A stretch of DNA of 58,822 nucleotides from Euryarchaeota archaeon UBA10 (GTDB lineage Archaea; Thermoplasmatota; Poseidoniia; Poseidoniales; Poseidoniaceae), in contig DAGO01000089.1 of the NCBI GenBank assembly GCA_002498185.1, positions 12,118-70,939 of the forward strand. The letters are read 5' to 3'. Shown piece after piece: positions 9,044-57,665 of the stretch (positions are counted from its first letter, which is position 1; each line of letters starts with the position of its first letter). A model generated the notes under the pieces. It worked only from the letters and a program-made list of their open reading frames with translations. It had not been told where the DNA came from and searched no databases. The position numbers and the translations under genes were made by a program.

Positions 9044-9106
9044 GTTGCGAAAAACAGCGTCGCCCTTATACCGTGGTGGCTTTTCCCTAGGTCCGGTGGT
9101 GAATTC

Positions 9107-11334: not shown

Positions 11335-11365
11335 CTATCATAAGCGGTGAAATTCAGTGCGAGGC

Positions 11366-32521: not shown

Positions 32522-32650
32522 TGCCGGGAGCGGGGCTTGAACCCGCGACCTTCGGATGTCTCAGACATGTGAAGGGGCTTTGGTACGTCACAAAAAGTTC
32601 CTTAGAACTGCCCTATGAGTCCGACGCGCCACCAACTACGCCACCCCGGC
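32522..32650 (-). tRNA. elongator tRNA-Met (anticodon CAT) with 56-nt intron at position 37/38
   Basis: Minus-strand read: GCCGGGG-TG-GCGT-AGTTGGTG-GCGC-G-TCGGA-CTCATA[56-nt intron GGGCAG...CTGAGAC]A-TCCGA-AGGTC-GCGGG-TTCAAGC-CCCGC-TCCCGGC-A. G1:C72 and an anticodon stem without GGG/CCC argue for elongator rather than initiator. Intron TGAG can pair with anticodon-loop CTCA, and GGGC pairs with GCCC, which is compatible with a bulge-helix-bulge. Confidence 0.85.
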
Positions 32651-34666: not shown

Positions 34667-34713
34667 AGCCGAAAGGAAACTATACCCCCTCCTTCAGTGG
34701 GAGTGTGAGCCCC

Positions 34714-40700: not shown

Positions 40701-43700
40701 CGCAGATTTGGGGCACACCAACATCAGAGATTCTTACATTGGAAGCGGATTTGCTAACACGAATCACGGTTCTGAATCTATGATGGTCGGTACAAATTGT
40801 GAAGGAGCAAATACCGAATGTCGAATGATCTTCGCTCTTGATAACAGCCAGATTCCTTTGCCAATGGCTGCCAAGATTCATTCGGCTTCAATTAATCTGC
40901 AAGTTGAATCTGCAGCATCAGGAACCATGACATTGAGTGTTCACAGACTACTAACTAACGCTTGGTCACAAGCAGGTTCTACTTGGAACAGCTCCTCTGC
41001 CGGAGTTTCATGGAGCGCTGGTGGAATGACCGCTGGTGTTGAATATGATTCGACACCTATCTCAAGTGTCACAATCAATTCTGGAACCACTGAAGTTTGG
41101 ATGGATATCGGTCATTCTAGTATGTTGATGGATGGAGACCATGGTTGGATTGTAATTGCAAGCACCCCTGCAGGTTCACCTTCATGGGTTGAGTTCTACT
41201 CTAGCGAACACTCATTGGAGGAGAGGCCAAAGATTCTGATCAATTACACTGACGTACATTCAGTATCTATCTCTCCTTCCGGTTCAACAACCGATGCGGA
41301 CACAACAGTTCAGTTCTCACACATTCTAAACGATGCACTGGGAGGAATGGTTTCCGAAGATGTTGTTTGGGATTCAAGTGACGGTACAATCAACTCGACT
41401 GGAGTGTACACGCCAATGTCAGTTGGAACACACGATATTACTGCATGTTTCGGTGTAATCTGTACCACTGAGAGCATTACTGTAACACCTGGAGCACCTG
41501 TAACTCTAATTGTAGATGAAATATCCAGCACAATAACAGCTGATGAATCATTCACAATTATGGCACATGTCGAAGACGCAAATGGCAACACTGTCCCTGG
41601 AATGACTATTACATACACACCAAGCAATGGAACAATGAGTGGAACTACATTCTACCCATACACTGCTGGTTCTCAAACCGTGACAGTTGGATGGAGTACT
41701 CAGACAATTGATGTTACAATCGATGTTGTTGGCGGTGCCCCAGTGTACTACGAGACTTCAGGATGTGAGGAAGTAATCCACGCTGGAGAAACCTGTCAAC
41801 TCACTTGGACGTTACACGACCAATATGGAAATATGCTCAACCTCGAAGTTGGTGGAGGAATTACTTGGACCGTTGGCGGAGGAGTATTCACTGAAGCCAA
41901 TGGAACATTCTTCGCTATGACTGTTGGTAATTATGTCATCAACATGTCTTCGACTGGAGGAATATACCACGAGATTCCAATTCAGATTACACATGGTGAA
42001 ATGGCAAGCTTAGAGATTGATGCGTCTGACACATTCGTTACTGCTGATGATATCGTCTGGCTGAACACAACTCGAATCGACATAATGGGTAACCGCCTAT
42101 CAGTAGTAATTCCACAGGAGAATTGGACCATCAGTGATGGAATGATTACTGCAGGTCAACCTGCAGAGTGGCATGCTCAAAGGCGTGGTTCTAAGACACT
42201 AACTGCAAGTTATGCTGGAATGGAAAGTAGTGTAGTTGTGCAAGTTAGTGAAGGTGCAATTACCGGTCTCGTTCTGGTGATTGATTCTGTAGATTCAACT
42301 GGTTCCCTACAGGAGATAACTGCTGATGATGAAATCACAATCAAGGTCAAGGCTGTTGACTCAGATGGCAACAGATGGACTGAGAATGTTGCATGGACAA
42401 TTGAACACGTTCAGTACACTGACCAAAGTGTGTTACAAGAGATGACTTATGGTTCAACCACTATGTTCGTTCCAGTATTCGCATCAGATTCATTCTACAC
42501 ACTGCGTGCAACATACACGGATGCCAACATTACGATTGAAGTGACATTGGACATATCTGTTGACCATGGTGATTTGATCAGTGTATCTTTGATTCAACCG
42601 GTAGAATTGACTCAGAATATTGATGCTGACAACAGTTTGCAATTCCTACCTCAGTTGACTGATGGTGATGGTAACATCATCGACCCGTCAATCGTATCCT
42701 ATACTTTGGAAAACACTGATTCGGGAGAGAAAACAAACATCACTTCAGTCATAGTTGGTAACTCTGGCATTTGGGAAGCATCGACTGTTGGTAATTGGTC
42801 AATCACTGCTTGGGCTATCTCAAGTAGTGGATACAACATCTCTGAGACAGTCACGATTTCGGTCGAACATGGAGATGCAGTCACCGTCGATATCGACGTC
42901 ATTGCGAACTCTGCGAAAGCTGGTGACGTGTACACACTAACAATCACAGGTACTGACGCCGATGGAAACACATTCCTAGAGAGTGTTCTATGGACTCAGG
43001 ACAACAAGGCTGTACCTGCTTCAACAATTGCGGGGTCTGGAGGAATCTACAACTGGAGTGCGACAACTGCTGGAGAGCACACATTCAAGTTCCGCTCACC
43101 TAGTGGTGCAGAGGACACATGGACAGTGACGGTTGTTCCTCATCAAACTGTCAGCAGAATCGAGTTGACCATCCTTGATGAATCCGTGCTTCAACTAGAG
43201 ACATTCGATATTGAAGTGAGAACATTCGATGCTTGGGAGAATGAAATCCCAGTACCGCCAGAAACTCAAGTTAAGTTAACTGGCAGAATGACTGCTGAAG
43301 AAACCGAGAACGGTAAGTGGACAATCACCACCTTAGATGCAGAAGAGCAAACCGTAATGATTGCTGTTCACAACAAGGAAGTGTCAGACACAATTGTTGT
43401 CGAAGGCACTTTCATGGGATTCTTTGAAGCAGGAGGAACCTTGTATTACGCAGGAGGAATCCTAGCAATCCTAGTTGTAATCGTATTGCTGGTAGTGATT
43501 GTAATGGTTCTGCGCTCAGGAGGGTCTGATTACGATGACGATGACGACGATGATGACGACTATGAGTACGAAGAGGAAGAAACCGTGGCTCCTGCCGCTG
43601 CGGGACCTAGTGGACCACCAGTGGCAGCAGGTGGTCAAGAAGATTGGATGAGTGATTATCGCGTCGATGAAGATAACGTTGAGTGGGGAGAGGATGAGAA

Positions 43701-43758
43701 CGGAACCTGGTGGTACCGTGACCCTGGAACTACTGAATGGAATGAATGGGCGGACTGA
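34714..43758 (+). CDS. giant (3014 aa from ATG 34714) surface protein: signal/TM, ~7 DNRLRE/CBM96-like modules with FN3-like spacers, ~10 Ig-like (Big_2-type) repeats, C-terminal TM, poly-acidic and Trp-rich tail
   Basis: A single uninterrupted 9-kb ORF. It has an N-terminal hydrophobic segment and the recurring motif set described in the findings. The C-terminal TM is ILAILVVIVLLVVIVMVL, followed by DYDDDDDDDDDYEYEEEE. Confidence 0.85.
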   Translation: MSTNSRDRRKITTSLLLVLMFLFADLSLPQAIPNWTNDELDDTVTIMQTTSAFNVSKDAGILSSTPNSNYGTDETATLGLGISGESRILISFNNSVPSGDMVTDSILELTCGIDPLTISSIDIFASRLKTSWDEANVTWTSPDDGDNWGLSGADDDSDRDTWEPPFYGYANNTFQINVTAIVQDAVINSRGSIDILLAATGSEYTCHMSESTDTNSRPSLSITHQNGTHSNGGSLAPNFVDDGSALMDEDEFLLKAATNPELSWDSMSGSHAQVQLSNNIDFISDSDSAWYYNTVDNSSLFTINAGTGEGAMTVPNGHELSNSTTMYYRMRAVDSAGTIGTWNSGYFHLPGHSVSEVDGYGQFTFSFDDLGLVEKTIEDSFIDSTGAVKNTNMGSEANITVGSSSSADQYGLLRLNLDDVGMHHNSSIVSATLSLDRVSFSGSAEVSFHIMDGEDWTESGVTWRKYDGTYYWDDGGRVPSMSVGQFEGDQSSSAIEVNLTAAIQKWIDDNNAGSTTSESLELMMVASTWGIEESSSKFVNLCSTEATGCDQPKLDITYDWGSNGPPASPTHLSPTDGHSVWNLTGDNLSGNTTPTLFWDGSISWTGDMLMQVATDQEYRNIVRSFNTATTSEFSETDGNWSVPGDDSLQDGVMYHWRMAQVDSSSHHHSWWSTSSFLVSGLESEYLQDDEHRLRLSHGNATTAGDAPSCEDTYIDSGTPSNNYNGEDEMQVSYNTFPSETSILLGCDLTSHLLPDGYAVKTATLKMRLADYPSGTPTLGAWESRQHNWSESAATWSTFDGTNSWGTSGAKGWERAGLLDTESLGNSYSAGDWVELDITLAVQNAMRENRSVDLILGIVGVGSGADRDALFYPNSANSPNRPEISFVYVPGSDALPSEPVPQTPLNGSWSVETGINPAPDTSPQLTWNLTSTGVTIGGWSIEMDTSSSFDSPNLVMATSWTDTGFDVTNQTYDMTSELQTGNTWHWRVRATSATNQIGNWSDSFHFLLPDITTWSIDSNTAAVELHHRQAMPALNLPNFIDTWVADSGVGATSDQSSSSTFKVGTSTSGENATALIKIPLTELPNPQNAHISDAVLNLYAQFGSDTGNAVSVHPALVAWNTSANGTTYDGINNWSSPGAMGANDRGAMSDVQQGASADWMEFDVTELVQDAFANGESHLSLMIVGSIGEGQTIFSSTDGLASERPWLNLTWSSGNASSPEVAGTNTNPTIDEIIWDTSTHALLPGATPTFAWSHPNASNVDDWRIFIWEDYNDERAGWTMYDSRDSSEGWDITNLTWTSPDDLSTGESYEWFIQPITDDILGARGQDTIFHIPAETGNSINSTDAEITLQEGQIVEALDYPAIFMDTYIDSGSTNQAFESSQRLLLGRSNYSSSLNYRSVSLLMVNWSSMPIPASHEFISATLTLHKLSGGEDGQETVKIAVCEMFDEWNQSATWNGPTGSNSSYTEQEYSGGCDTPFEVTSVAHDDYTVDFDITYAVQHAHANGSDEVNLGFYVVVNTSDEWHFASSDYTPDESKRPELSLEWRTGAQWLPSKPTNLHPLDGETIWDESASRPRGADNTTMNWSSSVNNETRWIMEYSTEPSFTNETLTLNHDFTDNGTFNGTWDISNLSFTIENNITGDYWLYWRVRADQDHRLGRWSSVHAFRVPNAIGSDDGAGNNTVTLFQGSVFEDTGDLPGVPDATIDSNRPNSALGDNGQLDLGISAAGSGESKIILTFDLSELPFPAAMTPTNALLGLYRHNVTGTSSLTVSAHACDAFAEDTVTWNTAPTCSSSEVTRSTMLVTPTNGWQVWDITSLAQSNVADGNNTLTIMLQSVGTPSSGHSFHDNSHSQYRPKLILDYVDNVDGVIPPGQPTLTYPGDGDILYNTSTWVLESLDKPQLTWNAVTDATGYIVTIADINGELKYKSWEDNEINGTTFTFSQNLTAGQVYTWWVQAINGSIPGPSSSRRAFAIGIPVDHSYNDDHTWTYTFQTGNEVADLGHTNIRDSYIGSGFANTNHGSESMMVGTNCEGANTECRMIFALDNSQIPLPMAAKIHSASINLQVESAASGTMTLSVHRLLTNAWSQAGSTWNSSSAGVSWSAGGMTAGVEYDSTPISSVTINSGTTEVWMDIGHSSMLMDGDHGWIVIASTPAGSPSWVEFYSSEHSLEERPKILINYTDVHSVSISPSGSTTDADTTVQFSHILNDALGGMVSEDVVWDSSDGTINSTGVYTPMSVGTHDITACFGVICTTESITVTPGAPVTLIVDEISSTITADESFTIMAHVEDANGNTVPGMTITYTPSNGTMSGTTFYPYTAGSQTVTVGWSTQTIDVTIDVVGGAPVYYETSGCEEVIHAGETCQLTWTLHDQYGNMLNLEVGGGITWTVGGGVFTEANGTFFAMTVGNYVINMSSTGGIYHEIPIQITHGEMASLEIDASDTFVTADDIVWLNTTRIDIMGNRLSVVIPQENWTISDGMITAGQPAEWHAQRRGSKTLTASYAGMESSVVVQVSEGAITGLVLVIDSVDSTGSLQEITADDEITIKVKAVDSDGNRWTENVAWTIEHVQYTDQSVLQEMTYGSTTMFVPVFASDSFYTLRATYTDANITIEVTLDISVDHGDLISVSLIQPVELTQNIDADNSLQFLPQLTDGDGNIIDPSIVSYTLENTDSGEKTNITSVIVGNSGIWEASTVGNWSITAWAISSSGYNISETVTISVEHGDAVTVDIDVIANSAKAGDVYTLTITGTDADGNTFLESVLWTQDNKAVPASTIAGSGGIYNWSATTAGEHTFKFRSPSGAEDTWTVTVVPHQTVSRIELTILDESVLQLETFDIEVRTFDAWENEIPVPPETQVKLTGRMTAEETENGKWTITTLDAEEQTVMIAVHNKEVSDTIVVEGTFMGFFEAGGTLYYAGGILAILVVIVLLVVIVMVLRSGGSDYDDDDDDDDDYEYEEEETVAPAAAGPSGPPVAAGGQEDWMSDYRVDEDNVEWGEDENGTWWYRDPGTTEWNEWAD
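34870..41170 (+). repeat. protein-level tandem array of ~7 divergent DNRLRE/CBM96-like modules inside the giant ORF
   Basis: Each ~300-450-aa unit repeats three elements. (a) ..D(S/T)(Y/F)I(D/S)S....N.G, for example EDTYIDSGTPSNNYNG, FMDTYIDSGSTNQAF, DATIDSNRPNSALG, IRDSYIGSGFANTNHG. (b) An L.(F/L)(D/N)LS.(L/I)P......A.L.L block. (c) W.E..(V/A)TW.....W. Approximate module starts: 34870, 35840, 36838, 37826, 38800, 39805, 40723. Confidence 0.6.
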
Positions 43759-43806: not shown

Positions 43807-46392
43807 GTGAGAAAGGCTATTCTTTCCTTGCTAGTCATTCTGCTGCTCGTTCAAGTTGCTTCACCGGTTTTGGCATCAACTCCCGCAAGTATTGACATTG
43901 ATTCACATCAACAATCAGTCAGTGCAGACCAAGCTATCAGATTTACTGCTGTTGTAAAGGATAGTTCAGGAAGCCCAATCAACGAGCCTATTACTTGGTC
44001 TGCGAGTTCAGGAACTATCGATTCGGATGGACTTTTCACACCGGGTGCAGTTGGTCAAACCATCATCACTGCTACAAGTGGAAGCGTAAATTCTACTACC
44101 TCAGTTCAAGTAACTGCAGGATGGCCTGTCGGAATTCAATCCGGGTTTAATTTAACCGAAGTCAGTATTGATGATTCAATCCAACTCAATGCAACATTGG
44201 TAGATCGTGCAGGCAATCCAGTTGCAGGTGATTTGACATGGAGATGCCAAAATGGAGAAATCGATTATACAAACATGACTTGGCAACCTGATGAAATCGG
44301 CAACGCAGTAATGAGAATCATCTACTTGGAATTGGAGATTCAAGTTATCTTCAATGTCATACCAGGTAGCCCGAGTACACTTGAAATCCCATTCGGATTG
44401 ACTGTACAGAGTGGCAATACTATCCACATCATACCTGTGGCCAAGGATAGCTGGGGTAATGAAGTCGGGCTATCAAAGGCAGGAGATTTAACTTGGTTTT
44501 CTGAAAATGGTTCGATTTCACCAACCGGCGTTTATTTTGGAGGAGCCCCGGGCGTTTGGAATATTAGCGTCAATAGCTCATCAGGAGCATATGGTAGTGG
44601 AGTAATCCGAGTTCTACCGGCACAAGCAACCGGATTAGATATCGAAATGGATGTTACTCAAGCAAGAACCGGTTCTCCAGTAAATCTATCCGCTATCAGA
44701 ACTGATGTCCTTGGCAATTCAGGTGAAATCCTCATTCCTCTATCTAACTGGACTGTTCCAACAGGATCTCTTTCCATGGATGGAGATTCAGTGGTTTGGA
44801 TTCCTTCGAAGATAGGAGATTGGACTATTGGTGTCAGTGACCAAGGATTTTCTGCGACTTTACAGGTTAATGTAATTCAGGGGGAGATAATAGGAATCGA
44901 CATCCTGTTGTCTGAAGACATTCTAAGGTCTGGAGAATTAATTGTAGCCTCAATTTCAGCATATGATGCAGCAGGAAATCAGCGAGCGGTTGATGGTGCC
45001 TGGAGTATCGATAGTGAATTATCTGCTGTCGACCAAGGAGATTGGATGCAACTAAGACCTGGACCAATAGGAAATTTCACGATTTCTGCAACTTGGTTCG
45101 ACAATGAAACACAATTGGTCCACGAAGTTGATTCTTTAGTTCAAGTGAAATCTGGGGAACTTGCTAGAATCGTCCTTCCTGAAAGTGGCACTAGAGTACC
45201 ATCAGATGGAGTCTTGGAATTACAACCTATTTTCGAGGATGAATATGGCAACGTCATCGATGAAGTATTGGTAACTTGGGTTGTTGATGATATTGACATG
45301 ACTATGGAAATTCGTCTTGCAGAAAACCGCTGGGCTCCTTCTAGTATTGGAATGCACGAAATCCGAGCGATGGCACAGGGAGTTTTCGCCATTACGGATG
45401 TCGAGGTTGTTGCAGGAACAGCACGACATATCTCCACCGACTATGATGAAGGATTTGAAGTGGCAAGCGCAGAGGGTGTTGAGATAACGATATCCACCTT
45501 GGATGTACACGGCAATGTTGCTTTAGCCTCCGATATCGAATTTGAGTTTGAGGACCCTGAAGGAATTGTTTCACCATCCTCGAAAGGAGAAGGATACTGG
45601 GTAGTTACTGGAGGTTTAGCGGGAGAATGGAACCTGCGACTGACAACAGGTTCAGCAACCCACGACATCGCTGTTACAGTCACACCAGGTCAAGCGGTTA
45701 GGCTACTCGCAGAAATTCCTGAACAAAATCCTGAAGAAGGCGGTAGCATGATTATGAGAGTTTACGCTATTGACCAAGCAGGAAATCGAATTGAAGTTCC
45801 TCCTGAAGATGTCACTATCAAGTGCACCACTGGTTCTGTCAAGCATTTAGCTGGAGATACGTATGAGATATCAATCGAACAAGCCGGTCAATCACAATCA
45901 TGCAATGCTTACTGGAATGACTTAGTCGCACAACGCTTCTTTGACGTTGATGCTGTATTATTTGGAGGAGGATTAGGAGATTCAAACACCGCTCTAACGA
46001 TGGTTTCGATAATCATATTCCTCTTCATTGCAATAATGGTAGTATTGATTCGCAGATTGAAAGGTGAACAAGATGACGATGGATATTGGGATGATGATTA
46101 TGACGAATATGAAGAAGACGACTCCATTCCAGACGAAACAGTTCCAGATGAAATCGAAAATGTACCTGCAGAAGTAAGTAGCGAACCTTCCAGCACTGAA
46201 ACCGCGCCAGAGACTACTAGCGAATCAAAGGAAGACTTGCGTGCAAGGTTAGCAGCAGAAGCAAAGCGAACCGGAATTATGCAGGCTGCTCCGGGTACTG
46301 AACAAGGTAAAACAGGTTGGTACATTGATTCTGATGGTCAATTGACATCATGGCTTGTTAGTGAATCAGGTGAATGGACTCGAATGTCCTGA
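43807..46392 (+). CDS. surface protein with Ig-like (Big_2-type) repeats, C-terminal TM, acidic and Trp-rich tail
   Basis: A GTG start is followed by a signal peptide (MRKAILSLLVILLLVQVASPVLAS). There are about eight ~90-aa repeats of the type ...V.W.....G.I...G.ft....G...I.A. The TM is MVSIIIFLFIAIMVVLI, followed by EQDDDGYWDDDYDEYEEDD. Confidence 0.7.
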   Translation: MRKAILSLLVILLLVQVASPVLASTPASIDIDSHQQSVSADQAIRFTAVVKDSSGSPINEPITWSASSGTIDSDGLFTPGAVGQTIITATSGSVNSTTSVQVTAGWPVGIQSGFNLTEVSIDDSIQLNATLVDRAGNPVAGDLTWRCQNGEIDYTNMTWQPDEIGNAVMRIIYLELEIQVIFNVIPGSPSTLEIPFGLTVQSGNTIHIIPVAKDSWGNEVGLSKAGDLTWFSENGSISPTGVYFGGAPGVWNISVNSSSGAYGSGVIRVLPAQATGLDIEMDVTQARTGSPVNLSAIRTDVLGNSGEILIPLSNWTVPTGSLSMDGDSVVWIPSKIGDWTIGVSDQGFSATLQVNVIQGEIIGIDILLSEDILRSGELIVASISAYDAAGNQRAVDGAWSIDSELSAVDQGDWMQLRPGPIGNFTISATWFDNETQLVHEVDSLVQVKSGELARIVLPESGTRVPSDGVLELQPIFEDEYGNVIDEVLVTWVVDDIDMTMEIRLAENRWAPSSIGMHEIRAMAQGVFAITDVEVVAGTARHISTDYDEGFEVASAEGVEITISTLDVHGNVALASDIEFEFEDPEGIVSPSSKGEGYWVVTGGLAGEWNLRLTTGSATHDIAVTVTPGQAVRLLAEIPEQNPEEGGSMIMRVYAIDQAGNRIEVPPEDVTIKCTTGSVKHLAGDTYEISIEQAGQSQSCNAYWNDLVAQRFFDVDAVLFGGGLGDSNTALTMVSIIIFLFIAIMVVLIRRLKGEQDDDGYWDDDYDEYEEDDSIPDETVPDEIENVPAEVSSEPSSTETAPETTSESKEDLRARLAAEAKRTGIMQAAPGTEQGKTGWYIDSDGQLTSWLVSESGEWTRMS

Positions 46393-47817
46393 TCATTCTT
46401 CACTAGAGTCAGCTTTCAATGATTGATTGAATTGGTAATGCTTTTTCCCGTAGATGTAGTATGAAGACAGTCCGATGATGATTGCGCCTAATGCGCCAAT
46501 TATCGCTTTCTCACCCATAATGAATACCAAGTAACCACCTGTCAGAGTACCGATAATCTGAACCCATGGGAATAATGGAGATTTGAATGAAGGCTTGTAC
46601 CAATCATGTTTTGGGTTTTCACTTCTCAGGATTATCACGCTAACATTCAATGCCACGATGACCATAATTTGGAATCCAGATGCTAGTTTAGCAACATCCT
46701 TCACTGGGAGCGTCAAAATACTGATTGCCATTGCCGCAGCAGTCAGAATAATCGCCCAGTGAGGAGTTTCGAATTTCTTATTTGTATCACACATTGTATC
46801 AGGTAGTAAACTATCTTTTGCCATTCCAAATAGGAACCTAGATGCTGCTAGAAGACCAGACAATGCTCCCGAAATCATTGTCAACACTGCTAACAGTGCT
46901 AGAGCTAATCCAATGTTAGTAGATGCAACAGCATCAACGAAAGCGAAGATTGGGTCTTCTCTAGGTGAGCCATCTGAGTTCAGCCACCATTCTCCATCGA
47001 CCGCTGCCATCATAATGAAAGTAACAACAACGTACAGCAGAGTGATTAGTAGTAGGGATATTAGCATACCTTTTGGAAGATTCTTTTCCGGTTCTTTGAC
47101 CTCTCCCCCAATCGCTCCTGCCTTGTAAATTCCTGCATAAGCAACGAAAACGAGTGCAGCTGCTTCGGCTACCAAAATTGGATCGCTTCTTGAAGTGTCT
47201 ATTGCGCCATCCATTGGACGTGAGAAATCGAAGCTAGCATCAAACAACTGAATTACACAGATTATCAGTATTAGAGCGGTAGTTAGTGCTAGGATTGGAG
47301 TTTGGAATGCTTTTACTTTCTTGATTCCAAAAATATTGAGAATAGTAATCAAGACCAAGGCGACCATAATTGTAAAAGTAGTATTTGTTGAGACATTGAG
47401 ATGGTTTGTTACAGCATACATGTAGGCTGAAAATCCGATAAGTGCAAATGCAGACTTCAACAAGAAAGATGCCCATAGTCCTAATCCACTAATCGTACCA
47501 ACCAATGGGCCAAAGGAGCGCTCCACATACACATATGCGCCACCATTATCTGGCATTGCAGATGCTAATTCAGACTTAGAAAGAGTTCCGGGAAGGAAGA
47601 CAATTCCTGCAATCAAGAATGCCAACCAAATACCAGGTCCCATAACCGCAGCAGCAAATGATGGTAGAACGAAAAGTCCTGAACCAATGCTCGCTGCAAC
47701 TGTTACGATGATAACGCCGATCAAACTGAGTGAACGCTCAATTTGGTATTTGACATCTGATACAACTCCAGAGATATCACCTTTCAGTAACTTACCAGTA
47801 GTTGATTTAATGTCCAT
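46393..47817 (-). CDS. APC-superfamily amino acid permease
   Basis: 474 aa with ~12 TM helices. The N-terminal IGSGLFVLPSFAAAVMGPGIWLAFLIAG is typical of APC permeases. Confidence 0.8.
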   Translation of the reverse strand: MDIKSTTGKLLKGDISGVVSDVKYQIERSLSLIGVIIVTVAASIGSGLFVLPSFAAAVMGPGIWLAFLIAGIVFLPGTLSKSELASAMPDNGGAYVYVERSFGPLVGTISGLGLWASFLLKSAFALIGFSAYMYAVTNHLNVSTNTTFTIMVALVLITILNIFGIKKVKAFQTPILALTTALILIICVIQLFDASFDFSRPMDGAIDTSRSDPILVAEAAALVFVAYAGIYKAGAIGGEVKEPEKNLPKGMLISLLLITLLYVVVTFIMMAAVDGEWWLNSDGSPREDPIFAFVDAVASTNIGLALALLAVLTMISGALSGLLAASRFLFGMAKDSLLPDTMCDTNKKFETPHWAIILTAAAMAISILTLPVKDVAKLASGFQIMVIVALNVSVIILRSENPKHDWYKPSFKSPLFPWVQIIGTLTGGYLVFIMGEKAIIGALGAIIIGLSSYYIYGKKHYQFNQSLKADSSEE

Positions 47818-47830
47818 AGAAAATCCTCCG

Positions 47831-47937
47831 AAAATTTCCGTTTTACGACAGATAACTCACTGTTATCTCCGGCCAAGCGACAATAGTAGTTATTGTTTAT
47901 CACCTATTTCCGAAGGACATCCCCGAAAAACGGAAAT
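47831..47937. repeat. nested inverted repeats filling the amnA-ridA / permease intergenic region
   Basis: ATTTCCGTTTT (47834-47844) pairs with AAAACGGAAAT (47927-47937) as an 11-nt perfect inverted repeat. Internal palindromes are GATAAC-TCACT-GTTATC (47851-47867) and CAATA-GTAGT-TATTG (47881-47895). Confidence 0.3.
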
Positions 47938-49325
47938 CATGCTTTAGCGATGACTTTCATTTCCACAGCAATCGGTGTAGGCAAGGCCCTAATCGCAAGT
48001 GTTGTACGTGTGGGACCTACTTTACCGAGTGTTTCAGCCCAAACTTCATTGTAACCTGAAAAATCACGGTCCATATCAACCAAGAACGATGTTACATCGA
48101 TCACTTTGTCCAACGACGAACCTGCTTCTTCGAGTATTCTTGCTATGTTGTCTACCACTGCTCTAGTTTGAGCTTTAATATCATAATTCAAAGGGTTACC
48201 ATTTGAATCTTTGATAGGTCCACCCGGTATCGAATTGTCTCCTGGTTGCCGTGGACCGACTCCGGATAGGTAAATCAAGTCGCCTTCTCTTCTAGCGTGT
48301 GGATAAGCACCGACAGGTTTGGGTGCTTTGCTGGTATTCACTGCGTTTGCACCTTCAACAGGGTCATACAATGCAGGTCCAGAATTGATTGGTTGTTTGG
48401 GTTCTGCATCTTTATCGGAATCGAGAACATTTCTGTCCCCGCCATAGAAATCGACATCGTCCTCATCGTACTCCTTGTCTCCTGTACCATTTGATTCAGG
48501 GTTTAGAACGACAACTGCTGCACCTGCACCATGTATCGGTTCGTATGCTAGTACCTCTCCAGTCAGGTCATTGCGATTATCATTCATTGCAGAGAGCCAC
48601 CACATAGGCTTGAATGCAACCACTTTCTTGACTCGAATCTGGTCGTGAATAGTACGGCTCAATTGTCCGACGTCTTCTAAGCGACCCTCTGAAAGGAACT
48701 CCAAAATCTTACGATTCCATTCGTCATCTTTCAGTGAGTGAATCCTATCTTCATGTGGCTCTATTGGTTCGGTGAACATTCTGTTTGATAGTGACATTAC
48801 GGAAACCGCTACTGCTTTTTTCCCTTGAGCCTTTACAACATCCATACATGCTTTTGCTAAGACAGTTGTCTCAGCTCTGTTAGAGTATACATTGGTAGAA
48901 CAGATTACCGCTGGTATTCTGTTGTCGGGATTTAGTAATTCCAAGGCAACGACCGAACCTACATCGACAGGGAAACCATGGTAAGAAACAGTTCTAGATT
49001 CAAGACCTCTGTTGATGTTTGCTTGGTTCCAAGCCTCCGCAAATTCTGTATCGATTCTCAGTGAATAGTGAATACTTCCTAAATCATGGAAATCAGCATC
49101 GACCATCACCCATTCAGGATTTGGGTCCGCCTGTATTTGATGCCCAATTACACTAGGCCATAGAGTAGAATAGACGATAATCAAATCAGCATCGCTCTCT
49201 TCAATTTGCCTACGTGCATCATCATAAGCATCACGAACACGTTGCCAGCCTTCATTCTTTTCAGGACATAGTACTGGATGTGGATGTGCTGGCACAATCA
49301 GTGATTTGACAATTTCACCACTCAT
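47937..49325 (-). CDS. fusion: AmnA-like (non-catalytic LigB-type extradiol dioxygenase subunit) + RidA/YjgF-family domain
   Basis: Residues 1-276 are LigB-like (IVPAHPHPV, LIIVYSTLWPS, YHGFPVDVG, EPIEPHEDRI..KDDEWNRKILEF, HGAGAAVVVL). Residues 277-328 are an acidic linker. Residues 329-462 are RidA-like (PKPVGAYPHARREGDLIYLSGVG...IDVTSFLVDMDRDFSGYNEVW...PTRTTLAIRALP..IAVEMKVIA). The start abuts the upstream stop (TGAATG). Confidence 0.65.
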   Translation of the reverse strand: MSGEIVKSLIVPAHPHPVLCPEKNEGWQRVRDAYDDARRQIEESDADLIIVYSTLWPSVIGHQIQADPNPEWVMVDADFHDLGSIHYSLRIDTEFAEAWNQANINRGLESRTVSYHGFPVDVGSVVALELLNPDNRIPAVICSTNVYSNRAETTVLAKACMDVVKAQGKKAVAVSVMSLSNRMFTEPIEPHEDRIHSLKDDEWNRKILEFLSEGRLEDVGQLSRTIHDQIRVKKVVAFKPMWWLSAMNDNRNDLTGEVLAYEPIHGAGAAVVVLNPESNGTGDKEYDEDDVDFYGGDRNVLDSDKDAEPKQPINSGPALYDPVEGANAVNTSKAPKPVGAYPHARREGDLIYLSGVGPRQPGDNSIPGGPIKDSNGNPLNYDIKAQTRAVVDNIARILEEAGSSLDKVIDVTSFLVDMDRDFSGYNEVWAETLGKVGPTRTTLAIRALPTPIAVEMKVIAKA

Positions 49326-50219
49326 TCAAGCACCCCAGTTTCGACATGGCCATTCCATGATTGCATTTCCTGTTCCAATAATCGTACCGTAGCCGTGCAG
49401 GATAGCAGGCTCACTTGGGACTCCCATTGCTGACAATAACCAAGTCAGTGCACCTCCGTCAGTTTCAGCAATTGCTTGCTCACAGAATTCAGGCATTTCA
49501 TTGATTATTTGCTGAGACTTTCCTTCGCGCATCATCTCGATCATGCGCATGTCCCACAAATGCATTGCATGGCTAGTGATGTGCTCTTTGCTCATGTCTT
49601 CAGGTGGATTAGTTTCTGTTACGAAGTGGCGATGTGAGAGAGAATTACTCGCAATCAGCAGACACTTCTTTCCGCTTTCTTCAATCGCTTTAGCAGTGGA
49701 CTTACCAAGTTCAATCATCATTTCTTGCATGACTTCCACAGAGTAGTATGACAAACTACGGTTTGATGAAATTGAAACAATTGGCTTATCCCACTCAGGC
49801 CTTACCATATGACAAGAAACAATTGTGCCATAATCGACTCTAAAATCAGGGTTAGTCATCATCTTGACAGACATTCCTTCTGATTTTGCTTGGTCGTGAA
49901 TAGCCTTAGCTAATTCAACATCTATTGTTAAATCATAATTGAAACGAAACAGGTTAGGGAATACTGGGTCAACACTTTTGGAAGAGCATTTCTCCACACC
50001 AATGAAATGGGTACCAACATAGGTTTGCCAGTGCGGCGACAATATTACGATAACATCGTAATCAACATCCTTCAATGATTCACGCAGCCGTTCATAGCCC
50101 CATCTGAGTTGCTCCCAGCCACCTTCGGAGACTGGCTCATTTTGCTCTGGGTTCTCTGCATAAACCAAATGCGGTGGATGCGGTGCAAGGCAACCTGCAA
50201 CAATTCCTCCCTTCGCCAT
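49326..50219 (-). CDS. AmnB-like catalytic subunit of a class III (LigB-type) extradiol dioxygenase
   Basis: GCLAPHPPHLV, VIVILSPHWQ and SNSLSHRH. It is paralogous to the N-terminal part of the downstream gene but keeps the His in the SPHW block, where the partner has STLW. Confidence 0.7.
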   Translation of the reverse strand: MAKGGIVAGCLAPHPPHLVYAENPEQNEPVSEGGWEQLRWGYERLRESLKDVDYDVIVILSPHWQTYVGTHFIGVEKCSSKSVDPVFPNLFRFNYDLTIDVELAKAIHDQAKSEGMSVKMMTNPDFRVDYGTIVSCHMVRPEWDKPIVSISSNRSLSYYSVEVMQEMMIELGKSTAKAIEESGKKCLLIASNSLSHRHFVTETNPPEDMSKEHITSHAMHLWDMRMIEMMREGKSQQIINEMPEFCEQAIAETDGGALTWLLSAMGVPSEPAILHGYGTIIGTGNAIMEWPCRNWGA

Positions 50220-50274: not shown

Positions 50275-50682
50275 ATGGGAGATAAGCCCGACATGAAGTT
50301 GCGCCACGTAGTTTGGCCTTCTCTATTCGCTATTGGCCTTGTTTTTGTCAGTGTAATAGCATTGGATGAAAACAAATTTCCACCTATGATTATCGCATTA
50401 ATTGCTGCAGTCCTTACCGCACCACTCCTTGCCAAAATAACCAATGCAGGAGACATGAAGGAACACGCATTTGGAGTAGCAGTAGTATGTGTTCCAATGT
50501 CAGTGGCGTGGATTATCGGTCCGAATTACTTCAACATCGCAATCCCATTTTTGATTTGGATTTGGCAGTGTGCTTCTTGGTCAAAAAAGAATCATCCACC
50601 GTTTAGATATGGTATCTGGCATGGATTCGGGATTGCATCCTGTATCCTACCAGGTGCTATGTTAGTTGCAAACCTGGTCTAG
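50275..50682 (+). CDS. hypothetical four-TM membrane protein
   Basis: Small hydrophobic ORF on the opposite strand. It interrupts the minus-strand array, and its 3' end overlaps the panB 3' end by 4 nt. The start is uncertain (TTG 50263, ATG 50275 or ATG 50293). Confidence 0.4.
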
Positions 50683-51494
50683 TAAGATTCCTCTTCATTA
50701 GGGAAATCTCCGCCGCGAACATCTTCACAATATTGCTCTACTGCGCCAGTAATTTGGCTTTCTAAGTCGAGATATCTTCTTAGGAATCTCGGACTGAAAT
50801 CGGTTGTTATTCCCAACATGTCATGTAAAACCAAGACTTGACCATCACAATCCTGTCCTGCACCAATACCAATCGTAGGGATCGATAGAGCATCACTCAC
50901 TTGCTTGGCAAGATGAGCAGGTATCTTTTCTAGGACTATCGCGAAACAACCAGCTTCTTCCAACAGTTTGGCATCAGCAATCAACTTCGCAGCCTCTTCC
51001 TCTTCCTTTGCACGAACTGTGTATGTACCGAATTTGTAAATCGATTGAGGAGTCAGTCCCAAGTGACCCATTACTGGGATTCCTGCTGTCAATATCCTCT
51101 GAATACTTTCAACAATTTCAGCGCCACCTTCCAACTTGACTGCATGGCCGCCGGATTCTTTCATGATGCGGATTGCACTCTCTAATGCAATCGCAGAGTT
51201 TCCTTGGTAAGTTCCAAACGGCATATCTACGACGATTAGTGCCCTATCTACCGCTCTCTCGACACACTGCGCATGGTAAATCATGTGCTCAAGACTCATT
51301 GGTACAGTTGTGTCCCTTCCAGCCATGACATTAGATGCCGAGTCTCCAACCAAAATTACGTCAACTCCACCTCTGTCTACCAACTTGGCTAGACTGAAAT
51401 CATATGCTGTCAGCATAGTGATTTTCTCACCTGCCCTCTTCATTTCCTGAAGAGTGTGAGTTGTCACTTTGCGAGCGTTTGCATGCACTGACAT
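50679..51494 (-). CDS. panB: 3-methyl-2-oxobutanoate hydroxymethyltransferase
   Basis: [62 protein letters not shown] and IVLEKIP are canonical PanB blocks. Confidence 0.9.
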
Positions 51495-51531: not shown

Positions 51532-52911
51532 TCAATCTTCCATCACGCAGATATTGACCGCTTCTGAGAAAAATCCGAGCGACCACATTCCACCTTCTCG
51601 GCCAACTCCGCTGTCTTTTACGCCTCCAAACGGAACTCGTAAATCTCTGTGCAGCCATGTATTGACCCAAACCATTCCAGAATCGATTTGCTCTGCAACT
51701 TTTCGCCCTCTTCCCTTTGACCAAACGCTACCTGCTAGGCCATATTGAGTGCAGTTTGCGATCTTGATTGCTTCTTCATCTGATTCAAATTTATGAACTG
51801 TAACTACCGGGCCAAATATCTCTTCGGTAGCAGTTCTAGAGTCATGTGAAAGTCCGGAGATAACAGTAGGTTCTATCCAAGCGCCCTGCTTGTTTGGAAC
51901 ACTACCACCGCTCAAGATGGTTCCACCTTCTTGTTTAGCTAATTCGATGTATGAAAGGACCTTTGCGCGATGTTCATCACTAATCACTGGCCCGATTTCA
52001 AAACTCTTCAACTCTTCTAGGTATCTCTCCATGAATTCGTCATAGATTGATGAATGAACCAAAACTCGTGAACCGCACAAACAGATTTGACCAGAATTGA
52101 GGAAAGATGCCCGTAAAACTCCGGGGACTGCGATATCTAAATCCGCGTCATCCAATACCAATGAAGCGTTCTTGCCTCCCAGCTCAAGACTCAATTTCTT
52201 GAACATAGGAGCCGCTGTTGCTGCTACAATCTTGCCCGTCGAGGTCCCGCCTGTGAAAGAAATCGCCCTAATTTCGGGGTGCTCTACAATCGCTTGACCA
52301 ACTTCTGGCCCATATCCATGAACAATGTTCAAAACCCCTTCAGGAAGACCAATTTGTGCGCATATTTTCGCTAAGAAATGGGCGGTCAAAGGTGTGATTT
52401 CACTTGGCTTAGCAATAATGGCATTACCCATCAACAGTGCTGGAGCAATTTTCCAAGATAGTAGATACAGTGGAAGATTCCAAGGGGATATCAATCCCAC
52501 TACGCCAATTGGTTTTCTCACAACGTAATTGGTTGCATCAGGCATCTGGAAAGTTTGTGATTCCATCCTGCGTCCAAAATCAGCAAAGAATCTGAAGTTG
52601 TTAACCGATCTATTTGCATCTACGTTCAGAGCTACATGATGCGGTTTACCTGTGTCCAGCGATTCTAATCGAGCAATTTCCTCGATTTGGCTCTCAAGTT
52701 CATTCGCAATTTTGTCTAGCCAATCACATCGCTGCTCAATGCTTAGCGCACCCCAATCTGGCTGTGCAGATTTAGCTGCCCCGACTGCGTCATCCACATT
52801 TTTAGTTCGAGGGACCTTTGCGATAATCGAGAAATCTAGAGGAGAAATATCATCGAAATCCTCACTGAGAGTTACGAATTTTCCTCCAATGTAATTCTCA
52901 ACTTGGATCAT
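51532..52911 (-). CDS. aldehyde dehydrogenase, 2-hydroxy/2-aminomuconic semialdehyde dehydrogenase-like clade
   Basis: [21 protein letters not shown] (the NFRFFA block I associate with the XylG/DmpC/AmnC/ALDH8A1 clade), [16 protein letters not shown] and the catalytic Cys in GQICLCGSR. The start ATG overlaps the upstream stop (ATGA at 52908-52911). Confidence 0.8.
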
Positions 52912-54110
52912 GTATCCACCTCGTAATGCCATCGATCACGGTCAGGGTCCCACTCATCCCAAGTCGGGATTGTCTTCAACACATCATGCAATGAATCAGG
53001 CACTATACCTGGAACAATAAACGCCTTCTGACGCTCTAAAGGATACGGATTTCTCAGTTCAATACCTAGGCAGCCGAGTATTGCCCTGGCGACATACCAT
53101 GTTGCTTGTGAGTTCCAACCATGAGCAATTTTTACAACAATACCCAACCCATTCGGGTAATCAGGATGCTCAATCGCCATTCCTAGAAGGCCATCTGCAC
53201 CTTCTTTTGCTATGACTTTGCCCTTGCCGATTTTCAAAATTGTTGAATCTAATCTGTTGAAACCGCCAACTAAATCGGGATTTTTACACATTGCTTCCCA
53301 AATCCAATCTGAATCTTTATCCTGAACTAAGCCAGCATAAATCTTGGCTAGTTCAGCGACTGTATTGGAAACAGTAGGCAATCCACACCCGTCTTTGGCG
53401 ATTCTTTGAGGATTCCAATCTTTACCTAGGAATCTTCTCAGTTGCTCCATGTATGCCTCAAACACTTCGTGGGTAGGAAGTGTGTATCCTGCACGATTCC
53501 ATCCCTTAGCTCTACACCCTGCAAGTATTGCTGCGTGCTCTCCACTGCATGTGTGATACCAGCGTCTTGGCCTTCTGACTTGGCGGCCAAATTGAATCAG
53601 AGGAACGTCAACCGGAGTGAGCATCAGAGGCCACTCCGCTTCCGAAAGTAATGATTGAGCAGCAGCAACGTGTTCTGTATCTCCATTATGGCTGGCTACT
53701 GATATCGCTTTTTGCTCCCAAGAGCAATATTCCAACTCCTTAGTGAACGCTTTCAGCATGAATGGTTTCATCATCGACCTGCCATAACACAGAACATTTC
53801 CTCCGAACGAATGGATGACTTCATCTCCATGGCACCATGCAACAGCACCATGAATCGTGGTTTCAGAGACTCCATTTCTTCGATAATCAACCAATGGTTC
53901 CCACTCAACATCCCTGCCGGTTGGAATGCCTTCGATGTCTTCGCCAAGAGGAGAATCCGGGTAAATTGCTGAACCCGGCTTACCGGGGGCTACAGCAGAG
54001 TTCTTGTCATGTCTCAAGTCCAATTTCTCACCCCAGTAGTGGAACCACTTCACTCCACCAAGCTTCCATATTGCGCACGACTCTTGCACTGTCATGATTG
54101 AAGAAATCAA
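52908..54110 (-). CDS. asparaginase-II family (PF06089-like) protein
   Basis: HGAVAW..GDEVIHSFGG...GRSMMKPFM, SVASHNGDTEHV, HTCSGEHAAILAGC, KDGCGLPT and IAKEGADGL are collinear with the Rhizobium-type asparaginase II signature as remembered. The start is uncertain: ATG 54110 or 54095 overlaps the upstream gene by ~70-83 nt, and GTG 54053 by 26 nt. Confidence 0.55.
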   Translation of the reverse strand: MISSIMTVQESCAIWKLGGVKWFHYWGEKLDLRHDKNSAVAPGKPGSAIYPDSPLGEDIEGIPTGRDVEWEPLVDYRRNGVSETTIHGAVAWCHGDEVIHSFGGNVLCYGRSMMKPFMLKAFTKELEYCSWEQKAISVASHNGDTEHVAAAQSLLSEAEWPLMLTPVDVPLIQFGRQVRRPRRWYHTCSGEHAAILAGCRAKGWNRAGYTLPTHEVFEAYMEQLRRFLGKDWNPQRIAKDGCGLPTVSNTVAELAKIYAGLVQDKDSDWIWEAMCKNPDLVGGFNRLDSTILKIGKGKVIAKEGADGLLGMAIEHPDYPNGLGIVVKIAHGWNSQATWYVARAILGCLGIELRNPYPLERQKAFIVPGIVPDSLHDVLKTIPTWDEWDPDRDRWHYEVDT

Positions 54111-55239
54111 ACCAACACATTAGACGGTCCTCAGGATGGAACCTTTCCAATACCTGCTTTGCTACTTCCTCAGGATTGCCAATGAGTGCATTGTCTGCAG
54201 CTCTTTCAACCTTTGAAGGGTCCAGAGTTCCCTCAAGTGCTTTCCAATATTCACCCAAAGCAAGACGGGCTTCATCATGAGCCGCCAAAGATTGTTCTTC
54301 AGGAGAGAGGCCTTCCTCTGCATTTAGGAAAACGAATGTTGTTCGAGGCATATCTCTTCTTTGCCATTCCCCGCCATCCTTGTGGAATACTTTGCTCATC
54401 CTTTCATGTGTTGAATCAATGACTTCAGGAGAGGTTATTGAGAGGTTGAAAACCTTCACTGGCATGAACTTGTTAACGTACTCTTGTGCTCTTGGGTCAT
54501 GGGTTCCTGCAACTAATTCCAGTTGGTTCCGAGGCCAGTTTTTCGGTACGATTGAGATTTCCTCAAACTGATATCTCCTGCCAATTTCTATCTCATCAGG
54601 CTGGCCACCTGCAGCATTTTGAACAGCGTTCCAATCTTCATCGGAACGGAAATTCTCTCTTGACAAAACTGTTGAACGGATCTCATCGGAACTAATGGTG
54701 TCTCCTCGCAATAGTCGAAGGAATATTTCGCTTGCTTCCATGAATATTTGTCCACGCAGTGCTGGCCAAGCAGCTTCTTCAACGGCGTTTCTAGGAATTA
54801 TTCCGTAAGGGCGAGCCATGAACTCAAATCTTCCGGCACTGAATCCAACGTGTAACTTACGATTGGAATCCATGTAAGATAGGAATTGAACAGTGTTAGC
54901 CATTCTTTCCGCTTGAGCAATAGGGCCCCCGCTTGCTAGAATACTAACTACAGCCGAACCTACATCGATTCTCTCTGTTCTCCTAAACGATTCCATAGCT
55001 AACTGGGGAAAATCTGTGCAAAGGCCAACTTCTCCTTTCCAGTGAGGTACCACTGGTCTTGAGTTACTTTGCTGAGTTTGTGTAGATAAATGGGCTTGTG
55101 CAATCCAAGCCACACCGAATCCTAAACGGTCTGCTGCTTCCAATTGCTCGTAGTAATTTGCGAACATTTCTGCTTCGCTGGGAGTGAATCCATTATGGTC
55201 TGGAGTTTGTGATATCGAGAAGAATATGTCGAACTCCAT
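54028..55239 (-). CDS. LLM-class (luciferase-like) flavin- or F420-dependent oxidoreductase
   Basis: MEFDIFFSISQTPD...EMFANYYEQLEAADRLGFGVAWIAQAHLS is a typical luciferase-like monooxygenase N-terminus. The length (403 aa) is consistent with the family. Confidence 0.7.
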   Translation of the reverse strand: MEFDIFFSISQTPDHNGFTPSEAEMFANYYEQLEAADRLGFGVAWIAQAHLSTQTQQSNSRPVVPHWKGEVGLCTDFPQLAMESFRRTERIDVGSAVVSILASGGPIAQAERMANTVQFLSYMDSNRKLHVGFSAGRFEFMARPYGIIPRNAVEEAAWPALRGQIFMEASEIFLRLLRGDTISSDEIRSTVLSRENFRSDEDWNAVQNAAGGQPDEIEIGRRYQFEEISIVPKNWPRNQLELVAGTHDPRAQEYVNKFMPVKVFNLSITSPEVIDSTHERMSKVFHKDGGEWQRRDMPRTTFVFLNAEEGLSPEEQSLAAHDEARLALGEYWKALEGTLDPSKVERAADNALIGNPEEVAKQVLERFHPEDRLMCWFDFFNHDSARVVRNMEAWWSEVVPLLG

Positions 55240-56091: not shown

Positions 56092-56877
56092 TCAGATTGA
56101 GCGCATTCGGCCACCGTCAACAGCAAGTGAAACACCTCGGATGCCGCCGGATATAGGCATGCAGAGGTAAGTAATCGCAGCTCCTGTTTCAAGTGGGTCA
56201 ATCAGCCTGTCAATTGGAACTTGAGACATCCATCCATCGTGTATCTCTTCGATGCTTTTTCCAGTCTTAGAATTAATCGAAGATGCTAGAGAACCAAGAC
56301 GGTCTGTATCTGTAAATCCGGGCAGGACATTGTTGATTGTGATGCAGGTTGGAAGTTCACGAGAAAGTGACTTTGCCCACGAGGCCATTGCTCCTCTCAA
56401 TGTATTGGAAAGTCCAATGTTTGGAATTGGTTCTCTAACCGATGTTGAGATTATGTTGACAATCCTGCCCATCCCGACTTTCTCCATCAGTGGCACGACA
56501 CCCCTAACCAATGTGTGTGATGCATGTAGATGTCTCTTGAATGGTGCTTCAAAATCTTCGACCTCATTGTCTAGCAGAGGCCCCCCTGGTGGACCTGCTG
56601 CATTGTTAATTAGGATGTGGCATTCTTCAATTGAAGAAATAAATTTCCCAATTGCTTCTTGATCTTCTAAATCAAGGCTAATTCCCGTATGTCCTTCACC
56701 TTCAAGAGTAGCAACTAAATCGTGCGGATTCCTACTTACTGCAGTAACTTTAGCACCAGCTTTAGCGAGCATCTTTGCTGTTGCTGCACCTATTCCTTTG
56801 GACGCCCCACATACAATTGCATGCTTTCCGATAAGCGCATTAGAGGAAAAGGGAAAGTCATCTCCTAGCCAGTCCAT
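56092..56877 (-). CDS. SDR-family oxidoreductase
   Basis: KHAIVCGASKGIGAATAKMLAKAGAKV (TG...GIG Rossmann motif), NNAAG, and PGFTDT near the C-terminus. Start taken at MDWLGDD. Confidence 0.8.
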   Translation of the reverse strand: MDWLGDDFPFSSNALIGKHAIVCGASKGIGAATAKMLAKAGAKVTAVSRNPHDLVATLEGEGHTGISLDLEDQEAIGKFISSIEECHILINNAAGPPGGPLLDNEVEDFEAPFKRHLHASHTLVRGVVPLMEKVGMGRIVNIISTSVREPIPNIGLSNTLRGAMASWAKSLSRELPTCITINNVLPGFTDTDRLGSLASSINSKTGKSIEEIHDGWMSQVPIDRLIDPLETGAAITYLCMPISGGIRGVSLAVDGGRMRSI

Positions 56878-56908
56878 GTATACGCCAAGTAGCGCTGGGT
56901 ATTGAACC

Positions 56909-57640: not shown

Positions 57641-57665
57641 GCGGTCTACTGCCAATTTTACCAAC

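Follow-up and report, generated by a model that had tools for sequence, protein, structure and literature searches.

Here, we describe a pair of adjacent genes in a 58,822-nucleotide stretch of DNA from Euryarchaeota archaeon UBA10 (contig DAGO01000089.1), a member of the Poseidoniales (Marine Group II). The whole stretch that was analysed is called the window in the following. The two genes encode paralogous LigB-type proteins related to the subunits of 2-aminophenol 1,6-dioxygenase (AmnAB), and the alpha subunit continues through an acidic linker into a Rid domain of the 2-aminomuconate deaminase type. The genes and their parts are as follows.

49326-50219, minus strand: catalytic beta-subunit gene of the AmnB type, an open reading frame (ORF) of 297 amino acids
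47937-49325, minus strand: alpha-Rid fusion gene, an ORF of 462 amino acids
48486-49325, minus strand: AmnA-type non-catalytic alpha domain, residues 1-280 of the 462-amino-acid fusion
48339-48485, minus strand: acidic disordered linker, about residues 281-329
47937-48338, minus strand: Rid domain of the 2-aminomuconate deaminase (AmnD/AmnE) type, about residues 330-462 and the stop codon

The dioxygenase subunits and the fused Rid domain

The gene order is beta, then alpha-Rid, and the TGA of the beta gene directly abuts the ATG of the fusion gene (TGAATG; …GCT TGA ATG AGT…). Two abutting, paralogous LigB-type genes had been recognised in a preliminary description of this DNA, and both ORFs and their junction are indeed found as described there, with a Pfam LigB match in each: the 297-amino-acid protein has an E-value of 3e-25, and residues 18-271 of the fusion have one of 1e-12. 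The full-length homology matches of both ORFs are strong and, judged from the sequences, not chance motifs.

Full-length matches of the beta protein in the PDB are AmnB (8ihg_A, E-value 3.6e-112, 378 bits) and CnbC-beta (3vsg_B, 5e-109), and the beta subunit of the ARO dioxygenase is matched at 8e-92 (7txy_B). Homoprotocatechuate dioxygenase (8iq8; DHPAO) scores 6.5e-09 and 39 bits, and DOPA dioxygenases reach 2e-03 or weaker, with 21 bits. Identity to the solved 2-aminophenol 1,6-dioxygenases is approximately 55%, and the Foldseek ranking agrees in placing AmnAB ahead of the other LigB dioxygenase classes. By scores and by Foldseek, both LigB proteins group with AmnAB and not with the homoprotocatechuate, gallate, protocatechuate or DOPA dioxygenases. 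In CnbC-beta, the iron is bound by His13, His62 and Glu251, with Tyr129 and His195 in the second sphere (PMC5291488). The corresponding residues here are His14, His63, Glu252, Tyr130 and His196, all five of which are kept in 15 out of 15 aligned beta subunits. The motifs APHPPH and SPHW, which had been pointed out earlier, are both present in the 297-amino-acid protein.

For the alpha domain, the best PDB matches are alpha subunits, namely 3vsg_A (E-value 9.5e-43), 7txy_A and 8ihg_B. Its predicted fold superimposes on 3vsg_A with a TM score of 0.93 and a root mean square deviation of 2.1 Å, compared to TM scores of 0.81-0.83 for the beta subunits (Foldseek). Where beta has its two histidine ligands, the alpha domain has Ala13 and Leu55. 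Among 151 homologues, the first position is taken by Gly, Val, Ala or Pro and the second by Gln, Thr, Leu or Gly, but never by His. Since the domain matches alpha subunits and its ligand positions never carry His, the arrangement of a catalytic beta and a degenerate alpha subunit, suggested beforehand by analogy to 2-aminophenol 1,6-dioxygenase, is confirmed: the triad His14/His63/Glu252 is intact in beta and absent in alpha. The alignment also places STLW of the second protein where beta has SPHW, as had been read from the sequence. One detail of that description has to be corrected, as the histidines of the AHPHP motif in the alpha protein are not aligned with the first iron ligand; the residue aligned with it is Ala13.

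The region between the two domains of the fusion is acidic, with 15 Asp/Glu versus 4 Lys/Arg in the 55 residues from 276 to 330. It is by far the least conserved region across 151 aligned fusions, where column conservation drops to 0.19-0.30 compared to 0.6-0.9 in the flanking domains. Archaeal linkers comprise 56-68 amino acids, of which 28% are acidic, while the bacterial ones are neutral and vary between 25 and 102 amino acids. In the AlphaFold model, the predicted local distance difference test (pLDDT) value falls below 50 at residues 289-315, between two confident domains. Composition, Pfam and AlphaFold are thus in agreement with the previously proposed acidic linker of about 50 amino acids that leads into a full RidA domain.

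The C-terminal domain matches the Ribonuc_L-PSP/Rid family at residues 332-461 (PF01042, E-value 2.4e-24). When the C-terminal 146 residues were searched alone, the best PDB match was AmnE of Pseudomonas sp. AP-3 (6izh) with 99.5 bits, while generic RidA proteins obtained at most 76 bits. The alignment to AmnE is almost gap-free, whereas every generic RidA lacks approximately 13 residues where AmnE has its characteristic extended Lp2 loop. Foldseek likewise ranks 6izh first among the Rid structures (40-41% identity, TM score 0.85). The AmnE pocket residues Ser35, Gly36, Arg117 and Lys135 are conserved, and AmnE Glu88 is replaced by Asp. Arg440, the counterpart of the catalytic Arg117, is invariant in the 151 homologues, as are Gly355, Asp410, Glu455 and Lys457. 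By these scores, the shared loop insertion and the Foldseek rank, the domain lies nearer to the AmnD/AmnE type than to generic RidA. According to a preprint, 2-aminomuconate decays spontaneously with a half-life of about 160 min, and its deamination is accelerated by a specialised deaminase but not by the generic human RIDA. The assignment to the deaminase type is therefore meaningful.

Distribution of the fusion and the conserved gene cluster

In a search space of 5.8 billion proteins, 3130 homologues of the fusion were found. The best 120 are 75-93% identical to it, and all of them carry both Pfam domains, although under generic public names such as 'Rid family hydrolase [Candidatus Poseidoniaceae archaeon]' or '2-aminomuconate deaminase'. 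Among species-representative genomes, relatives turn up in at least 577 stretches, and all of the best 80 come from Poseidoniales. Among representatives at 50% clustering, more distant fusions occur with 42-53% identity, and a search from one of these yielded 1554 further proteins, the best 120 of which are all fused. Bacterial carriers include the cultured Oligoflexus tunisiensis, an Oligoflexus sp. and a Bdellovibrionales genome. Since hundreds of genomes, archaeal as well as bacterial, share the fused ORF, the fusion is real; it is neither unique to this contig nor an archaeal peculiarity. Novelty for archaea had been claimed beforehand. In the open-access text, we found no paper on the fusion or on AmnAB-type genes in Marine Group II, which is consistent with this claim, but the fusion is not specific to archaea, as bacteria share the cluster.

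These data also bear on the most sceptical explanation, that the C-terminal domain is a housekeeping RidA which quenches imines such as 2-aminoacrylate, or that the fusion arose from an assembly or frameshift artefact. An artefact is ruled out by the in-frame fused ORF, with a linker of variable length, in hundreds of genomes. A housekeeping role would fit the retention of the general imine-hydrolase arginine and the match to TIGR00004, the generic Rid model, whose 82.5 bits are nevertheless below the cut-off of 106. However, no generic RidA comes as close to the domain as AmnE does; the domain also shares the insertion of AmnE and always stands beside AmnB and AmnC. We regard this explanation as largely refuted by conservation and as very improbable.

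Several unusual relatives were noted during the searches. A 430-amino-acid homologue with 54% identity occurs in the transcriptome of the diplonemid Diplonema japonicum (P0122, EukProt), where it is explained by contamination or else by transfer into this marine protist. In P0177 and P0200, an ABC-transporter permease domain (BPD_transp_2) is fused to an AmnA-like LigB domain. The aldehyde dehydrogenase part of the 873-amino-acid protein P0128 continues into three Rid domains in tandem, which provides an independent tie between a deaminase-type Rid and the dehydrogenase.

The gene pair of the window is surrounded by further genes that are listed below.

46393-47817, minus strand: amino-acid permease of the APC family, immediately downstream of the fusion (AA_permease_2, E-value 7e-45)
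50679-51494, minus strand: bona fide PanB, between the dehydrogenase and AmnB (384 bits)
51532-52932, minus strand: 2-aminomuconate-6-semialdehyde dehydrogenase of the AmnC/AMSDH type, 466 amino acids, 1.3 kb upstream of AmnB
52908-54110, minus strand: homologue of class-3 (Rhizobium etli type) asparaginase (Pfam PF06089, E-value 5.7e-48)
54028-55239, minus strand: divergent luciferase-like (LLM) oxidoreductase of the flavin or F420 type, 403 amino acids (Bac_luciferase, weak E-value of 4e-07)
56092-56934, minus strand: short-chain dehydrogenase/reductase (adh_short, E-value 4e-30)

For the dehydrogenase, the seven best PDB matches are all 2-aminomuconate-6-semialdehyde dehydrogenases, among them AmnC (7bzv_A, E-value 1.6e-140) and 4i1w; other aldehyde dehydrogenases trail them by more than 50 bits. 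The best NCBIfam model is TIGR03216, 2-hydroxymuconic semialdehyde dehydrogenase. Synteny of this gene with the fusion is found in archaea as well as in bacteria.

The 80 best Poseidoniales loci were used for the archaeal comparison. They have the order luciferase-like gene, asparaginase homologue, dehydrogenase, PanB, small membrane gene, AmnB, AmnA-Rid and permease. PanB belongs to the cluster in all Marine Group II loci and is absent from the bacterial versions. The small membrane gene between PanB and AmnB lies on the opposite strand and was detected in most archaeal loci, and the permease follows the fusion in most of the loci that reach that far. The short-chain dehydrogenase is a probable cluster member, but its orthology is less certain than that of the others. 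The alpha/beta-hydrolase at 56909-57718 was considered as a kynurenine formamidase of the eukaryotic type, but this is not supported: its best solved relative is a carboxylesterase, no formamidase was matched, and the gene is not stably linked to the cluster in the archaeal loci.

The asparaginase homologue retains both Ser-Lys tandems of ReAV, that is Ser-x-x-Lys and the second Ser together with the second Lys, as well as both Cys. The zinc ligand Lys138 of the Rhizobium etli enzyme is replaced by Glu in 62 out of 62 archaeal and 3 out of 8 bacterial orthologues. Identity to the bacterial orthologues in the same cluster is 58-67%. As annotated, the ORF overlaps the dehydrogenase gene and, by 83 nucleotides, the upstream luciferase-like gene. 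The latter overlap, and the fact that the bacterial orthologues align only from residue 54-69 onwards, suggest that the true start is probably the TTG at 54023 or 54017.

No PDB match was obtained by sequence for the luciferase-like protein at 54028-55239. Its AlphaFold model, of moderate quality (pLDDT 76), has the luciferase-like TIM-barrel fold with a TM score of 0.80 to LuxA (1luc_A), and matches luciferase, RslO1, F420 enzymes and type II Baeyer-Villiger monooxygenases (4uwm) about equally well. The bacterial orthologues are 45-50% identical to it.

The bacterial fusions belong to the same cluster, from which PanB and the permease are missing. Five versions, those of Oligoflexus tunisiensis and four metagenomic contigs, have the order short-chain dehydrogenase, luciferase-like gene, asparaginase homologue, dehydrogenase, AmnB and AmnA-Rid. 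In Oligoflexus tunisiensis (L081), AmnB and AmnA-Rid lie at 9105-11506. All six cluster genes have bacterial orthologues with 37-67% identity to the window proteins, with the lowest range for the short-chain dehydrogenase that precedes the LLM gene in L081-L083, L085 and L087 (37-44%). Since the cluster is common to Poseidoniales and to bacteria of the Oligoflexus/Bdellovibrionales type, horizontal transfer is implied.

The next gene after AmnA-Rid in four of the five bacterial clusters is a cyclase (PF04199), which matches the kynurenine formamidase model TIGR03035 over its full length with 193-209 bits, at a cut-off of 223. Two further bacterial clusters carry a tryptophan 2,3-dioxygenase gene (TIGR03036, 273 bits), which the luciferase-like gene directly follows and overlaps.

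L088, 1627-11889 (GCA_016307145.1): bacterial cluster with tryptophan 2,3-dioxygenase
L086, 1-11892: bacterial cluster with tryptophan 2,3-dioxygenase

In L088, and in no other bacterial version, DmpH-like and DmpE-like genes stand beside AmnB, AmnA-Rid and the formamidase. The gene-context link to tryptophan breakdown is seen for the bacterial clusters only: a tblastn search for tryptophan 2,3-dioxygenase and KynB found neither in the window nor in the 80 archaeal loci (within 10 kb).

A proposed ring-cleavage route and its alternatives

We propose that the gene pair encodes an AmnAB-type dioxygenase whose alpha subunit tethers a Rid domain of the 2-aminomuconate deaminase type, and that both take part, aided by the AmnC-type dehydrogenase, in a ring-cleavage route. 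We assign this reading a probability of roughly 75%. Family assignments, residue conservation, the fusion and the synteny are observed; from them we infer the substrate, the activities, the order of the steps and the assembly. The Fe(II) centre of the beta subunit would cleave an o-aminophenol next to the hydroxyl-bearing carbon and release a 2-aminomuconate-6-semialdehyde. The alpha subunit, which has lost its metal ligands, would serve as a structural partner that carries the Rid domain on a flexible linker of 25-100 residues. The dehydrogenase would oxidise the semialdehyde to 2-aminomuconate, whose enamine or imine would then be hydrolysed by the tethered Rid domain to 2-oxohex-3-enedioate and ammonia. 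In this way, the fusion would keep the deaminase stoichiometric with the dioxygenase and beside it, such that fewer unstable intermediates are lost. AmnAB is a dimer of alpha-beta heterodimers, and Rid proteins form trimers or hexamers; the fusion may thus give rise to a larger, defined assembly.

Several points weigh against this proposal. The members of the fused clade are assigned from their sequences, their activity being presumed, and in the fused clusters the beta subunits make up a clade of their own, sister to the characterised enzymes, so that the actual substrate could be an aminophenol with a further substituent. The placement of the Rid domain relies on score differences, the shared insertion and the Foldseek rank, which do not amount to a full phylogeny. 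Furthermore, Arg56, which holds the homohexamer of AmnE from strain AP-3 together, is replaced by Asn here and by Gly in 123 of the 151 homologues; this residue is a feature of one enzyme and does not necessarily mark the whole deaminase family. No aminophenol source is evident in the archaeal loci, and no decarboxylase, hydratase, aldolase or acetaldehyde dehydrogenase was detected among the scanned ORFs of the window. Finally, direct channelling is not obvious, because the fused activities represent steps 1 and 3 of the route. The preliminary description held that the fusion physically links ring cleavage to deamination. Both domains are confirmed, but the link skips the dehydrogenase step.

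This last point is removed if the order of the steps is reversed. The Rid domain could act first on 2-aminomuconate-6-semialdehyde and yield 2-hydroxymuconate semialdehyde before cyclisation to picolinate occurs, and the dehydrogenase would then be a 2-hydroxymuconate-semialdehyde dehydrogenase. It is the deaminase, not the dehydrogenase, that is fused to the dioxygenase, which makes the best kinetic sense if the two reactions are consecutive, and TIGR03216 as the best NCBIfam model of the dehydrogenase points in the same direction. From the literature, such dehydrogenases take amino as well as hydroxy substrates, and this promiscuity leaves room for the reversed order. Against it, the enzyme closest to the Rid domain is known to act on 2-aminomuconate, all of the nearest dehydrogenases of solved structure are specific to 2-aminomuconate semialdehyde by name, and fusions of aldehyde dehydrogenase and Rid such as P0128 fit the canonical order. 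Altogether, we consider the reversed order unlikely.

A different question is the nature of the ring substrate. Instead of free 2-aminophenol, the dioxygenase could cleave a substituted o-aminophenol of the kynurenine pathway, such as 3-hydroxyanthranilate or 3-hydroxykynurenine, with the luciferase-like enzyme as the hydroxylase. The separate position of the beta clade from the 2-aminophenol enzymes would be explained, and so would the bacterial clusters that combine tryptophan 2,3-dioxygenase and kynurenine formamidase without a 3-hydroxyanthranilate dioxygenase. However, neither an aminocarboxymuconate semialdehyde (ACMS) decarboxylase nor a kynureninase nor a flavin kynurenine monooxygenase is present in any cluster, the dehydrogenase and the deaminase match enzymes of the unsubstituted C6 chain, and the asparaginase homologue would be left without a role. 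We rate a substrate of this kind as a little less probable still than the reversed order of steps.

The proposed cleavage of an aminophenol by AmnB, AmnA-Rid and AmnC can also be extended to the cluster as a whole, more tentatively. With the help of the luciferase-like enzyme and the asparaginase homologue, the cluster may convert kynurenine into an o-aminophenol. Such a route would bypass kynurenine monooxygenase, kynureninase, 3-hydroxyanthranilate dioxygenase and ACMS decarboxylase, of which none is found in any cluster. Kynurenine would be formed from tryptophan via tryptophan 2,3-dioxygenase and kynurenine formamidase. By an oxygen insertion of the Baeyer-Villiger type at the aryl ketone of kynurenine, the luciferase-like enzyme would produce an aspartate 2-aminophenyl ester, from which N4-(2-hydroxyphenyl)asparagine can arise by rearrangement. 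The class-3 asparaginase homologue would split the product into L-aspartate and 2-aminophenol, and the latter would be converted by AmnB/AmnA-Rid and AmnC to 2-oxohex-3-enedioate and ammonia. In Marine Group II, compounds of the kynurenine type might be taken up through the amino-acid permease encoded next to the fusion. The idea accounts for every conserved gene but the short-chain dehydrogenase, and no paper on such a pathway was found in the open-access text. We regard the general route as a speculative possibility, and the suggested specific Baeyer-Villiger and amide chemistry as less likely than the route itself.

Relation to known systems and significance

Like the dioxygenases AmnAB, CnbCab and ARO (8ihg, 3vsg-3vsj, 7txy), the pair described here consists of adjacent paralogous LigB genes with the ligand triad in beta and a ligand-less alpha, but here the alpha subunit continues into a linker and a Rid domain, the genes stand in the order beta, then alpha-Rid, and the beta subunits have a clade of their own. 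The hosts also differ, being a pollutant-degrading proteobacterium or actinobacterium in the known cases and an archaeon or an Oligoflexus-type bacterium here. AmnD/AmnE (6izh) is the best match of the Rid domain in sequence and structure, with the same extended Lp2 loop and the same Ser/Gly/Arg/Lys pocket. AmnE, however, is a free-standing protein of 142 residues in a hexamer held by Arg56, whereas our domain is covalently attached to AmnA.

The operon amnBACDFEHG of Pseudomonas sp. AP-3 and Burkholderia xenovorans LB400, which encodes a modified meta-cleavage pathway, likewise unites dioxygenase, semialdehyde dehydrogenase and deaminase in one neighbourhood. It carries lower-pathway genes, in place of which the window cluster has the luciferase-like gene, the asparaginase homologue and the short-chain dehydrogenase; the bacterial fused clusters add kynurenine formamidase and, in two versions, tryptophan 2,3-dioxygenase. 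In the ARO microcompartment of Actinobacteria, the early 2-aminophenol enzymes (dioxygenase, dehydrogenase and deaminase) are also kept physically together, by encapsulation in a protein shell instead of covalent fusion, and no shell genes are present here. The lower branch of the bacterial kynurenine pathway (HAAO, ACMSD, AMSDH and aminomuconate deaminase) ends in the same dehydrogenase and deaminase chemistry, and it has tryptophan 2,3-dioxygenase and formamidase as its first enzymes in common with the bacterial fused clusters; the difference is that an AmnAB-type dioxygenase takes the ring-opening role in the fused clusters. In summary, the fusion is a new fused form of the known AmnAB/deaminase system, possibly within a new route from tryptophan to aminophenol.

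Apart from the cluster, the window carries a replication factor C small subunit gene and several other loci of interest. This gene, the tRNA described below and closest relatives that are all Poseidoniales mark the window as archaeal. A 989-amino-acid protein at 24123-27092 (plus strand) contains a CD36-family domain (PF01130, E-value 2.7e-12), which is typical of eukaryotic scavenger receptors and unexpected in an archaeon. The gene at 34705-43758 (plus strand) encodes 3017 amino acids with six CBM96 stretches and Ig-like domains, and is followed at 43807-46392 (plus strand) by a Big_1 protein of 861 amino acids that has a membrane anchor at the C-terminus as well as an acidic tail; both products look like giant cell-surface proteins. 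A DUF835 protein is encoded at 5019-6764 (plus strand), overlapping with a gene at 6761-8512 (plus strand) whose product has a DnaA-like ATPase domain. Rfam and tRNA scans of the window gave nothing that bears on the dioxygenase/Rid fusion. They include a tRNA of 129 nucleotides at 32522-32650 (minus strand; Rfam match of 52 bits) that was missed by ARAGORN, for which an intron-containing archaeal tRNA is the simplest explanation.

Marine Group II are the most abundant archaea of surface seawater; they are uncultured and thought to live on proteins and lipids. An aminophenol ring-cleavage module is not mentioned in the open-access text of the main Marine Group II genomic surveys that we examined. 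This predicted module is conserved in most Marine Group II genomes, and it points to an unrecognised source of carbon and nitrogen in the sunlit ocean, derived from aromatic amines or tryptophan. The fusion itself places a domain of a trimer-forming family on a subunit of a dimer of heterodimers, and would represent a natural alternative to the actinobacterial microcompartment. If the cluster-level route holds true, it would add a new branch to the kynurenine pathway and provide the first functions for the divergent luciferase-like enzyme and the class-3 asparaginase homologue.

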